Assembly: GCA_000004985.1 (NCBI GenBank)
Contig: GG739277.1
Length of the DNA stretch: 2,227 nt
DNA from: Naegleria gruberi
Lineage: Eukaryota
Reading direction: 5' to 3' (one strand)
The translations under genes were made by a program, and so were the position numbers. Shown piece by piece: positions 1 through 2,227 of this stretch; the stretch's first letter is position 1, and each line of letters opens with the position of its first letter. Under the pieces are notes generated by a model. The model worked only from the letters and a program-made list of their open reading frames with translations, was not told the origin of the DNA and ran no database searches.

Positions 1-1
1 C

Positions 2-508
2 AGGTCAACATCTCGTGTTGAAGCCTTGAGACCATCCCTTCAATTTTGGGCCAATATTGAGAGAAGAGTTTTTCCAATTTCATGGTCTTATGATAAGATT
101 AAAAGAGGAATTATTTTTATTTGGTCCTTGATTGATAGAAAAGCTTTGAAACGTGATCCAATTTTCTATCATCATATTGAAGGTTTCATTCAGAGAAAAG
201 ATCATTATGATCCTTTCATTTTCAAACTCACTAGTGCCATGTTAGTCATTGGTTTCAGACTTTTCGCTAGACCAGGTGAATTAGCTAGACTCAAGTGGTG
301 TTATGTTACAAAGCTTAGAAATGGTAACATCAAATTAGATCTCAGTGGTCACAAAACAGATTTCTTTCTACTAGAAAAGCCGATGACTATTGACAAGCAT
401 CTTGAAAATCCTTTAGTGTGTCCAGTGAAATTGCTTTTTGATTACATGTCTAATTCTGAGCGAAGTGAAGAATGGACTTGTTTTCATTGTAAACTTAATA
501 AAATATAA
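2..508 (+). CDS. Partial CDS, 5' end outside the window (frame 2 is open from base 2; the first codon in the ORF track is TTG, not ATG). Tyrosine-recombinase-like protein fragment with a Box I Arg motif and a beta-hairpin Lys; it lacks the C-terminal HxxR/Tyr half.
   Basis: There is no stop in frame 2 from base 2 to the TAA at 506-508. The translation contains ...SAMLVIGFRLFARPGELARLKWCYVTK... (nt ~236-310). This aligns to YR Box I, e.g. lambda Int TGQRVGDLCEMKWSDI, with the pattern R-x-G-[DE]-L-x-x-[LM]-K-W-x-x-[IV]. SGHKTDFFLLEKP at nt ~347-385 resembles the catalytic Lys hairpin (Int SKTG). The R-to-K spacing is 28 residues, as in Cre (R173/K201). The protein ends ~50 aa after the Lys, without HxxR or a Tyr nucleophile. 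Confidence 0.55.
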   Translation, partial: RSTSRVEALRPSLQFWANIERRVFPISWSYDKIKRGIIFIWSLIDRKALKRDPIFYHHIEGFIQRKDHYDPFIFKLTSAMLVIGFRLFARPGELARLKWCYVTKLRNGNIKLDLSGHKTDFFLLEKPMTIDKHLENPLVCPVKLLFDYMSNSERSEEWTCFHCKLNKI

Positions 509-523
509 GTTGAGTATTTTTCC

Positions 524-538
524 ATGCTCAAAAAATTA
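524..538 (+). promoter_or_regulatory. Leader motif copy A: ATGCTCAAAAAATTA, 20 nt upstream of the ORF2 ATG. It contains an out-of-frame uATG.
   Basis: A 15-nt string that matches 1909-1924 exactly except for one extra A in the A-run there. Same orientation, and a similar distance to the downstream start codon. Confidence 0.4.
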
Positions 539-543
539 TCACA

Positions 544-1536
544 ATGGCCCCAACACCAACTACACCAAAGAACAACAAGAAAACGAAAGACCTTAGCTCA
601 CCTTCTGCAGGTAGCGAGCAACGAGTCATTGTTCTAACTCCTTCCACCTCAAATTCTTCTGATAGTTCTGCTATGCCTTCACCTCCTCCTGTTCAAGACA
701 CAAAGAAGAACAAGAAGAACAATCAACAAAAGATATCACCTGGCAAAGACTCAAACAACGCCAAGGTTGGTTCACAAGGTGCTTCTGCTCTCGCTTCTTC
801 GATGGAATTGTTTGAGTCCAACCCATCTGAAGAGGTTTCTGGTAAAAGAGCAAGAGTTGCTGATGAACCAGATGATTGGTTTAAAAACCACGTCATCGAC
901 TCTTACCAAAGAATGTTTGGTGAGTCATTGAAAGAAGATTTGCCGTTGGAAGAAGCTGTTTCTCTTCTATTCGAAACAGCCAATGCTCCATACGCTGACA
1001 ACTTGGAATTCAAGAATAGAATGGCTGCTCTTGAATTGTTGTTCAGAAAAGAAGTAGACACTCCCATTCCAGATTCATCTGGTATAAAAGATATTAAAAG
1101 TAAAGGTTATTCTTTACTTTTAACAAACTCTTTTATCATCTCTCAAATCTGCAAGCGTTTGAGAGAGAGTGATACCCTTGATTTACCGCTTATTCTTCAA
1201 GGATTTGAATTTATTCAGAATATTTCTGAGTTAAATCTAGTCTGTATTCGAATGGGCATTAAAAATGGCTTTGAAGCAGCTGAAAACTTCTCTAACAGCT
1301 ACAAATCAGGAGGTTCACTTGACCAAATCACCTCCAAACAACAAGAGAAGGCCATTAAATCTGCTGAAAAAGTAAAAGCAGTAGAAACCATTGAAAAAGT
1401 CAGCAAATGGGCCAGCAGAACCCCTAATTTTCATAAGTTCCCCACTAGATACGATAATCTTAGTAGTACCGTTTCAGTTTTACCTAGTTGTAATAAACAC
1501 CGGAAATTTATTTATGTTTTTAACAATAAAAGCTGA
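544..1536 (+). CDS. Hypothetical protein, 330 aa. The N-terminal ~110 aa are low-complexity (S/T/P and K/N rich, with basic clusters). The C-terminal ~200 aa look globular and are of unknown function.
   Basis: A complete ATG-to-TGA ORF of 993 nt in frame 1. Yeast-like codon usage (AGA Arg, TTG/TTA Leu, no CTG codons). The N-terminus (MAPTPTTPKNNKKTKD...KKNKKNNQQKISPGKD...SGKRARV) has NLS-like basic runs and an S-P-x-K Cdk-consensus site. I do not recognise the C-terminal domain. Confidence 0.55.
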   Translation: MAPTPTTPKNNKKTKDLSSPSAGSEQRVIVLTPSTSNSSDSSAMPSPPPVQDTKKNKKNNQQKISPGKDSNNAKVGSQGASALASSMELFESNPSEEVSGKRARVADEPDDWFKNHVIDSYQRMFGESLKEDLPLEEAVSLLFETANAPYADNLEFKNRMAALELLFRKEVDTPIPDSSGIKDIKSKGYSLLLTNSFIISQICKRLRESDTLDLPLILQGFEFIQNISELNLVCIRMGIKNGFEAAENFSNSYKSGGSLDQITSKQQEKAIKSAEKVKAVETIEKVSKWASRTPNFHKFPTRYDNLSSTVSVLPSCNKHRKFIYVFNNKS

Positions 1537-1559
1537 AAGTAGTCAAATGATGATATTTG

Positions 1560-1600
<41 letters not shown>

Positions 1601-1710
1601 AATTGATGTTAGATATTAGTTGTTCCATTTATTTTTAAACTACTCCATCAACCTCCATGAATCTAGTTGTCTATTTCTTGTTGTAAGAGTTTTTCTTTGT
1701 TTTAATAAAC
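1537..1710 (+). terminator. Probable 3' UTR and polyadenylation region of ORF2. TATATA-type efficiency element ((AT)18) followed by A/T-rich positioning sequences, including AATAAA at ~1703.
   Basis: In S. cerevisiae-type 3'-end formation the efficiency element is UAUAUA, followed by an A-rich positioning element and a Py(A)n cleavage site. The (AT)18 tract lies directly downstream of the TGA at 1534-1536, and T-rich/A-rich runs follow (ttttaattgatg, atttatttttaaac, tttaataaac). Confidence 0.4.
1562..1597. repeat. (AT)18 dinucleotide microsatellite.
   Basis: A perfect 36-bp alternating AT run, read directly in the sequence. It begins 25 bp after the ORF2 stop codon. Confidence 0.95.
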
Positions 1711-1908
1711 AACTATCATAACTCTACTTTTACTACTTCTAATAACAGTGTTTTTGTAATATTTTTACAAAGTTTGTTTTTTCTTTGAATTTATTTTCTT
1801 TGGATTTACCATAAAGATTATTACTTCCAATGTAGAGTTGCGAGGAACGATGCAACGTTAGTATTACGACAAATTGTAAACAATAAAATTGAGTTGATAA
1901 ATAATTTT

Positions 1909-1924
1909 ATGCTCAAAAAAATTA
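1909..1924 (+). promoter_or_regulatory. Leader motif copy B: ATGCTCAAAAAAATTA, 27 nt upstream of the ORF3 ATG at 1936. Its own ATG is in frame with ORF3.
   Basis: Second copy of the motif found at 524-538. A 15/16-nt exact repeat is not expected by chance within 2.2 kb. Confidence 0.4.
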
Positions 1925-1935
1925 AGTATATTGAA

Positions 1936-2227
1936 ATGGTTCAAACACCAAGCAAGGCGAATATTTCCAACATTCGTCAAAGAGTTTCAGCAAGCAAATC
2001 TTCAACTTCTACCTACAAGTCAGGTTACATCCCAGTAACTGACAATGGTAGCTCAGCTTCACTCCCCTCTGTGGTTGACCCAACATCCAAAACCTTGGAT
2101 AACAACCAAGCTGGTTCTGAAAAGAACCTTGATGCTATTCTCAACGCCATCACTTCTTTGGGTGAGAGAATAAAGCATCTCGAAGCTGTTCCTCCTGTTC
2201 TGCAACAAGCTAATCAACTTGATGAAG
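1936..2227 (+). CDS. Partial CDS, 3' end outside the window. Hypothetical protein with an S/T-rich N-terminus followed by a probable helical segment. An alternative in-frame start lies at 1909.
   Basis: Frame 1 is open from 1789 to the window end. ATGs are at 1909 and 1936, and the sequence around 1936 (aaATGg) is the better context. The translation is MVQTPSKANISNIRQRVSASKSSTSTYKSGYIPVTDNGSSASLPSVVDPTSKTLDNNQAGSEKNLDAILNAITSLGERIKHLEAVPPVLQQANQLDE. It is not in the ORF track only because no stop occurs inside the window. The first 17 coding nt and the N-terminal peptide resemble ORF2. Confidence 0.5.
   Translation, partial: MVQTPSKANISNIRQRVSASKSSTSTYKSGYIPVTDNGSSASLPSVVDPTSKTLDNNQAGSEKNLDAILNAITSLGERIKHLEAVPPVLQQANQLDE

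Follow-up and report, generated by a model that had tools for sequence, protein, structure and literature searches.

The window analysed here, the whole of a 2,227-bp contig of Naegleria gruberi, carries two copies of a short motif, each a few nucleotides upstream of an open reading frame (ORF), and is a mosaic of pieces of tyrosine-recombinase (YR) retrotransposons of the DIRS order. From left to right it holds a YR gene fragment, a leader (leader A) with a gag-like gene that is not followed by pol, an AT-rich spacer with an (AT)18 run, and a second leader (leader B) with the start of another gag-like gene. On balance, we favour the reading in which the motif copies form the best-conserved part of a promoter/leader of 55–95 nucleotides (nt) that precedes the gag-like ORF of Naegleria DIRS-order elements. 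The features are as follows (other loci are denoted L001, L002 and so on, and proteins P0001, P0002 and so on):

2–445, plus strand: ORF1, a truncated YR gene fragment that runs off the left window end and lacks the part with H-x-x-R and the catalytic Tyr.
446–543, plus strand: leader A, conserved non-coding sequence before ORF2, aligning with positions 118–208 of L001, upstream of the ORF2 homologue P0003.
486–494 and 497–504, plus strand: upstream blocks of leader A, namely ATTGTAAAC and the TATA-like/AATAAA box AATAAAAT, the box starting 33 nt before A530.
510–514, plus strand: TTGAG of leader A, the reverse complement of CTCAA in the motif.
524–538, plus strand: motif copy A, ATGCTCAAAAAATTA, with the proposed transcription start A530 within its CTCA.
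544–1536, plus strand: ORF2, the gag-like first ORF of family A (330 residues), 100% identical to N. gruberi predicted protein P0001.
1537–1845, no strand: AT-rich spacer (21–26% GC), with the (AT)18 microsatellite at 1562–1597.
1846–1935, plus strand: leader B, conserved non-coding sequence before ORF3, aligning with positions 1–104 of L002, upstream of the ORF3 homologue P0005.
1873–1881, 1882–1889 and 1889–1893, plus strand: blocks of leader B, namely ATTGTAAAC, AATAAAAT (starting at −33) and TTGAG.
1909–1924, plus strand: motif copy B, ATGCTCAAAAAAATTA, with the putative transcription start A1915.
1936–2227, plus strand: ORF3, the gag-like first ORF of family B, of which the first 97 codons are present before it runs off the right window end.

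A sequence-only reading of the window had described a leader motif duplicated upstream of ORF2 and ORF3, and it had placed both copies correctly: ATGCTCAAAAAATTA at 524–538 is separated by a 5-nt gap from the ATG at 544, and ATGCTCAAAAAAATTA at 1909–1924 by an 11-nt gap from the ATG at 1936. The 13/17 match that it gave for the start regions of the two genes was also reproduced. The repeat, described there as 15 nt and exact, is present, but its exact part is 12 nt only (ATGCTCAAAAAA, at 524–535 and 1909–1920), with TTA after it, and the sole difference between the copies is an A-run of 6 versus 7. The accompanying argument that such a repeat lies far beyond chance is weak for the 12-mer alone (a second, unrelated exact 12-mer repeat also occurs inside the window, and two or more motif matches at up to two mismatches were found in 52 of the 200 shuffles) but holds for the longer leader alignment. 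Similarity extends collinearly for approximately 38 nt upstream of the motif, through ATTGTAAAC, AATAAAAT and TTGAG, and the pairing of 486–538 with 1873–1924 was the top local alignment of window positions 1–1540 against 1611–2227, with a score of 48 that was reached by none of 500 dinucleotide shuffles (mean 24.9, sd 2.7, maximum 40). Given this collinear extension and the unmatched score, the repeat is real, longer than first noted and not a product of chance.

The leader blocks also recur 5′ of homologous genes at three independent loci (L001, L002 and L008), and the two window copies are indeed homologous 5′ leaders, each before its own gene. Across approximately 23 kb of retrieved DNA, five genuine exact copies of ATGCTCAAAAAA were found, common to five leaders from three element families and all on the coding strand, with distances from motif start to gag-like ATG of 20, 27, 20, 29 and 34 nt; the motif never preceded a pol or YR ORF in the DNA compared. 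The suggestion of a conserved cis element shared by a gene family was thus borne out, all five genuine copies lying 20–34 nt before a gag-like ATG. Scans of viral contigs and of prokaryotic genomes with a composite leader pattern returned no match, nor did a search of phage DNA. The sole match to a 28-base composite pattern among JGI metagenomes (L003, contig Ga0181385_1020601, 2,112 bp) falls inside a coding region and was judged to be due to chance; the ends of that contig repeat (TGACAAGGATGCTTATCAAGG), so it is probably a circular genome resembling those of single-stranded DNA viruses, and it was judged not to be related to Naegleria.

Leader sequences were conserved well beyond the genes that they precede. 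Leader A of the window and that of L001 (family A, whose leader reads ...GTGAAGAATGGACTTGTTTTCATTGTAAACTCAATAAAAGTAAAATTGACTCAAACCATGCTCAAAAAAATTATTCAATGG) were 88% identical over ungapped columns, compared with 58.7% for the gag coding DNA next to it, or 39% when third codon positions are taken alone; for leader B and the leader of L002, the corresponding values were 91% over ungapped columns, 69.5% for ORF3 coding DNA and 55% at third codon positions. Both the ATTGTAAAC and AATAAAAT blocks were present in window leaders A and B, L001 and L002, and L008, representing a third family, has a rearranged version of the box, AAATAAATTGTAAAA, starting at −29 (leader positions are numbered from the A of CTCA, that is, A530 and A1915, as an assumed start site), and carries its motif 34 nt before a gag-like ATG opening MPAKSPVKTPSAS. 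The 12-mer itself was invariant in five of five leaders although the gag-like proteins of families A and B are only approximately 20% identical, which points to the 12-mer itself being under strong purifying selection as DNA or RNA sequence. A candidate 5′ end of family A at CTAATTCT was dropped because the homology between the window and L001 must stop there wherever L001 truly ends. Upstream of the shared blocks, a palindrome (ATTCT-N11-AGAAT) lies at window positions 453–473 and L001 positions 121–141, with a counterpart in L008 at 1700–1750 (CATCCT-N15-AGGATG, with T-A replaced by C-G) that is part of a 50-nt hairpin (z-score −2.6); this palindrome of families A and C, with one compensatory change only, is possibly a factor-binding site.

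Genomic context identified ORF2 and ORF3 as the first ORFs of two diverged YR retrotransposon families, as judged from L001 and L006. The ORF2 homologue P0003 (52% identity) lies on the metagenome contig L001, where it is followed directly by a 645-residue ORF and then by a YR gene, and L004 has the same layout (an ORF2-type gag, an ORF with reverse transcriptase, ribonuclease H and MT domains (RT/RNase H/MT), and a YR ORF). ORF3 is 100% identical to residues 1–97 of the 341-residue protein P0023, which in turn is 51% identical to the L006 ORF at 193–993 that directly precedes RT/MT and YR ORFs. As present in the window, ORF2 and ORF3 showed no significant protein similarity, and ORF2 matched full-length P0023 only marginally (BLASTP E value of 0.014, 22% identity). 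Alignment of the family A and family B gag profiles, by contrast, gave an hhalign probability of 95% (E = 4 × 10−8, 196 columns, approximately 20% identity); ORF2 and full-length ORF3 are remote homologues. The full-length comparison that had been proposed as a check thus revealed distant homology (hhalign 95%, E = 4 × 10−8), and the description of the two genes as tandem paralogs stands in so far as they are distant gag-like homologues (hhalign 95%), but not in its sense of a local duplication of host genes, given approximately 20% identity and membership of two element families.

Homology of ORF2 to other family A gag-like proteins ends near residue 298 (approximately nt 1437), and no pol follows it. 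Its last residues, about 32 in number (codons ~299–330, nt 1437–1536), are without homology to other family A gag-like proteins; the same C-terminal tail is found in P0002, a second genomic copy on a 196-kb scaffold, so a unit consisting of leader and gag only occurs at no fewer than two genomic sites; it may represent a non-autonomous derivative or else a segmental copy. P0002 is without 38 residues (ORF2 residues 35–72), which could reflect a real deletion or a predicted intron.

The recombinase fragment at the left of the window gives a further indication of how the mosaic arose. ORF1 is 93% identical to residues 75–226 of the 326-residue N. gruberi protein P0009, with homology ending after CPVKLLFDY at nt 445, and is 49% identical to the family B YR P0015 and 36% identical to the family A YR of L001. 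The YR gene is broken at nt 446–449, and the sequence from nt 450 onwards matches the non-coding leader of L001 instead; the final 20 codons and stop of 'ORF1' as an uninterrupted frame (2–508), that is, 446–508, are read-through into leader A. Because the upstream recombinase gene is broken at nt 446–449, we conclude that the pieces of the two families were brought together by insertion, and DIRS-type elements are known for inserting into other copies (PMC7192593). The spacer between the two gag-like genes may derive from the host or form the outer part of the family B terminal region, and comparison of window positions 1440–1850 with the flanks of the other loci found no significant similarity. 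An 83%-identical 24-nt direct repeat occurs in this region (1476–1499 and 1688–1711; ...TAATAAACA).

Assignment to the DIRS order is based on the tyrosine recombinase, the RT, a gag-like first ORF and the gene order. Pfam searches with the three window ORFs gave no matches, and the link is instead through relatives of ORF1: beyond its 93% identity to P0009, the Phage_integrase family PF00589 was matched by P0006 at 28.6 bits, over the cut-off of 27.1, and by P0009 at 21.8 bits, under it. The R...K...HxxR...W...Y residues are visible in P0016 and the intact 305-residue recombinase of L008 has the full catalytic residue set, with the window YR ending before HxxR and Y. An RT/RNase H ORF between the gag-like ORF and YR is found in related loci, though not in the window, with RVT_1 matches in the 645-residue pol ORF of L001 (E = 9 × 10−20) and in the pol ORF of L006 (E = 2 × 10−23), and the related loci have the gene order gag–pol–YR with a 4-nt pol/YR overlap. 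At the pol C-terminus of both families there was a match to Dam (N6-adenine methyltransferase, PF05869) at 23.1 and 24.8 bits (E = 7 × 10−5 and 2 × 10−5), under the 28.1-bit cut-off. These matches (L001 2624–2896 and L006 2432–2749, pol residues ~506–611) are the counterpart of the enigmatic 'MT' domain of DIRS1-like and PAT-like elements and, although below the Pfam cut-off, argue for a DIRS1-like or PAT-like rather than an Ngaro or VIPER affiliation.

No inverted leader copy was present in any locus compared, and no contig spans a complete element. In L008, a YR stop is followed by 111 nt, the motif and a gag-like ATG in direct orientation, an arrangement that fits split direct repeats and tandem copies equally. 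The direct order in L008 and the lack of an inverted leader are, in contigs that span no whole element, more readily reconciled with split direct repeats of the PAT-like type than with the inverted repeats of DIRS-1. PAT-like elements (split direct repeats A1...B1 A2 B2, with an MT domain) resemble those described here in the order gag, RT/RH/MT, YR, in the sub-threshold Dam-like MT match at the pol C-terminus of both Naegleria families and in the direct-repeat-like layout of L008. DIRS-1 of Dictyostelium is likewise a YR retrotransposon with a gag-like ORF first, followed by an RT/RH/MT pol and YR, and its copies insert preferentially into other copies (PMC7192593; PMC4482531), which matches the broken YR gene of the window. 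It differs in having inverted terminal repeats and an internal complementary region, in contrast to the direct YR–leader–gag order of L008, the one informative locus; the Naegleria leader, moreover, is without sequence similarity to the DIRS-1 repeats and, at about 90–145 nt, much shorter than the DIRS-1 repeat.

Another non-coding motif, ACCCATTNGT (then ...TTCCAA), is also conserved: it was noted at or just after the recombinase stop at four loci from different families (L004 3722–3759, L005 2707–2779, L008 1660–1700 and L009 1700–1730). Its relation to the YR reading frame varies, since it runs across the stop codon in L009, comes immediately after that codon in L008 and is found 20 nt beyond it in L004 and L005. 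The motif is a candidate 3′-end or junction signal of the elements. Separately, in the family B loci L006 (3560–3740) and L007 (2380–2556), the recombinase ORF (267 residues) diverges after GHSLRIGA, before the catalytic Tyr, and a new ORF, MSNKLAPSASVDDISDSDSSSVVED..., with an acidic/Ser-rich N-terminus starts 18 nt on. This is a second case of an interrupted recombinase, and ATGCTCAAAAAA was absent at this junction in L006 and L007.

The geometry of the leaders suggests what the conserved blocks might do. AATAAA(A/T) starts at −33 in window leader A, −33 in window leader B, −31 in L001 and −29 in L008 (four of the five leaders), and the A of CTCA lies 14, 21, 14, 23 and 28 nt before the gag ATG, across a stretch that is A-rich and unstructured. 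Taken as a whole, such an arrangement would constitute a compact RNA polymerase II core promoter, in which the AATAAA(A/T) box would be a TATA-like element 29–33 nt upstream of the A in CTCA and CTCA(+1)AAAAA would be the initiator, with genomic or gag mRNA starting at A530 (copy A) or A1915 (copy B). The resulting 5′ untranslated region (UTR) would be 14–28 nt long, A-rich and unstructured, and the motif's own ATG would be left out of the transcript. Of the roles put forward in the sequence-only reading, a shared cis element acting as initiator is thus the one that we prefer. Transcription and start-site choice would depend on CTCAAAAAA and AATAAAAT, and GTGAAGAATGGACTTGTTTTC in family A and ATGCAACGTYAGTATTWCGAC in family B may be family-specific upstream regulatory sites. 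Whereas the identity of the leaders and ORFs as parts of elements is established by the comparisons above, the start site and the roles of the boxes are what we infer from geometry.

This promoter reading has parallels in known systems. The left terminal repeat of Dictyostelium DIRS-1, directly 5′ of gag, serves as promoter; transcription starts near the inner end of this repeat, and most of the repeat is missing from the transcript (PMC7192593; PMC4482531). By analogy, the Naegleria leader may be its counterpart. The leaders also resemble promoters with a TATA box and initiator, in having an A/T-rich box approximately 30 nt upstream of a CA(+1) in a pyrimidine-rich CTCA and, as deduced, a very short 5′ UTR; they differ in that the box is AATAAA(A/T) and not TATAAA, in an A-run from +2 and in an invariant block of 12 nt. 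In Trichomonas, promoters with short UTRs use the initiator TCA+1Y(T/A).

Several points weigh against it. In L002, the first AATAAAA is at −44 and the second at −20, so the spacing is not kept, in what is a 1.4×-coverage contig with a premature stop. CTCA(+1)AA departs at +2 from the human initiator consensus BBCA(+1)BW. The invariant 12 nt exceed a typical initiator and may instead indicate a more specific binder. Finally, nothing was found in the open-access literature on Naegleria core promoters or start sites, nor was a description of this leader motif found there.

An alternative that we regard as unlikely, though it deserves some weight, is that the leader belongs to a terminal repeat (in a split-direct-repeat element its 'A' repeat, or else a circle-junction region) kept for reverse transcription, cDNA completion or YR recombination. 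The order in L008, in which an intact 305-residue YR is followed after 145 nt by a leader and gag start in direct orientation, is what a head-to-tail or split-direct-repeat arrangement predicts, and YR elements require specific junction sequences (PMC3266345; PMC7192593). In addition, TTGAG with the CTCAA of the motif forms a 5–6-bp inverted repeat that brackets the region, but the spacer of this repeat is variable (approximately 10 to 25 nt) and its arms are 5–6 bp only. YR core sites have fixed spacers of 6–8 bp. The insertion junction in the window (446–449), moreover, is 75 nt upstream of the motif and not at it, and the relation of motif to gag ATG is fixed (20–34 nt) over three families. 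The two roles are nevertheless compatible and not mutually exclusive.

Somewhat more doubtful are two further readings: that the leader is a dual-purpose module, in which AATAAA would double as TATA-like box and poly(A) signal while transcripts would both start and be cleaved at CTCA|AAAAAA, or that ATGCTCAAAAAA is a general Naegleria initiator or transcription factor site borrowed by the elements. In the former case, one module of ~35 nt would set both ends of the genomic RNA in a head-to-tail or terminally redundant YR retroelement; in the latter, ATGCTCAAAAAA would be the first defined core-promoter motif for Heterolobosea. A dual-purpose module would recall the U3-R region of retroviruses and long terminal repeat (LTR) elements, where the poly(A) signal lies upstream of the transcription start; in the Naegleria leaders, one AATAAA-type box lies approximately 30 nt before the putative start and, as pure speculation, could act as a promoter element at the 5′ copy and as a poly(A) signal at the 3′ copy. 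The Naegleria elements differ in being without LTRs and without a DDE integrase.

We attach little probability to the view that the leader is at heart a 3′-end signal, possibly doubling with a promoter, in which AATAAA would act as poly(A) signal and transcripts coming from the upstream YR, in head-to-tail or terminally redundant copies, would be cleaved at the CA of CTCA|AAAAAA. Eukaryotic cleavage occurs 10–30 nt downstream of the poly(A) signal, and the distances measured here fall in that range: counted from the last base of the AATAAA hexamer, CA lies 28 nt away in both window leaders, 26 nt away in L001 and 24 nt away in L008; the order of YR then leader in L008 and the window is also as expected. 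However, AATAAA is frequent in this AT-rich DNA, and in L004 and L005 an intact YR is followed by at least 38–73 nt without a leader.

Less probable still is a post-transcriptional element in the 5′ UTR, that is, an upstream ORF (uORF; MLKK...) or a translation or packaging signal. The motif ATG is invariant, and in four leaders (window A, L001, L002 and L008) the uORF that it opens extends over the gag start; in copy A this uORF encodes 37 residues out of frame (524–637), those of L001, L002 and L008 are also out of frame, and in copy B the motif ATG is in frame with ORF3 (1909–1935) and could add a nine-residue extension, MLKKIKYIE. However, the uORF differs in frame and length at every locus, and its peptide is shared only as far as MLKK(I/L). 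The 12 nt are invariant, by contrast, including all synonymous positions, so the constraint is on nucleotides and not on peptide, and a conserved uORF peptide was ruled out. The context of the motif ATG is also poor, with a pyrimidine at −3 and C at +4, compared with mostly A at −3 and G at +4 for the gag ATG. An RNA structure or RNA family was rejected as well: the RNAalifold consensus was a six-pair helix (TTGAGT/GCTCAA) lacking any compensatory change, at −0.2 kcal/mol in total, single-sequence folding z-scores were inconsistent (−2.6 to +0.5), and Rfam searches gave sub-threshold chance matches only. Within ORF3, at window positions 2088–2133 on the minus strand, Rfam gave a sub-threshold match to the histone 3′ stem-loop (20 bits, gathering threshold 34, E = 0.024), most likely by chance.

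Barely credible, finally, is a host tandem duplication, in which ORF2 and ORF3 would be neighbouring cellular paralogs that kept their 5′ UTR: they do share orientation, lie 1.4 kb apart and have similar leaders and first codons, but their proteins are only ~20% identical while the leaders share exact blocks, the gene upstream is a broken recombinase, and the two are not mutual closest relatives outside a mobile-element context, since closer relatives of each precede RT/MT and YR genes in other contigs.

Together, these results describe an ordinary feature of a mobile element, and no major question is opened by it. The kind of element was known: DIRS-like elements have already been recorded in Naegleria, as seven copies in six families in N. 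gruberi that Piednoel et al. (2011) left unclassified (PMC3266345) and as 89 DIRS fragments detected by RepeatMasker in N. lovaniensis (PMC6125883). What the analysis adds is a 12-nt cis element that is invariant over at least three families with gag-like proteins only approximately 20% identical, in an arrangement from which the transcription start can be predicted to the nucleotide. The leader may serve as an annotation marker for N. gruberi elements that were earlier 'unclassifiable', and it could be a candidate for a compact promoter in constructs used to transfect Naegleria. It may also offer a handle on how split-repeat YR elements define the ends of their RNA.

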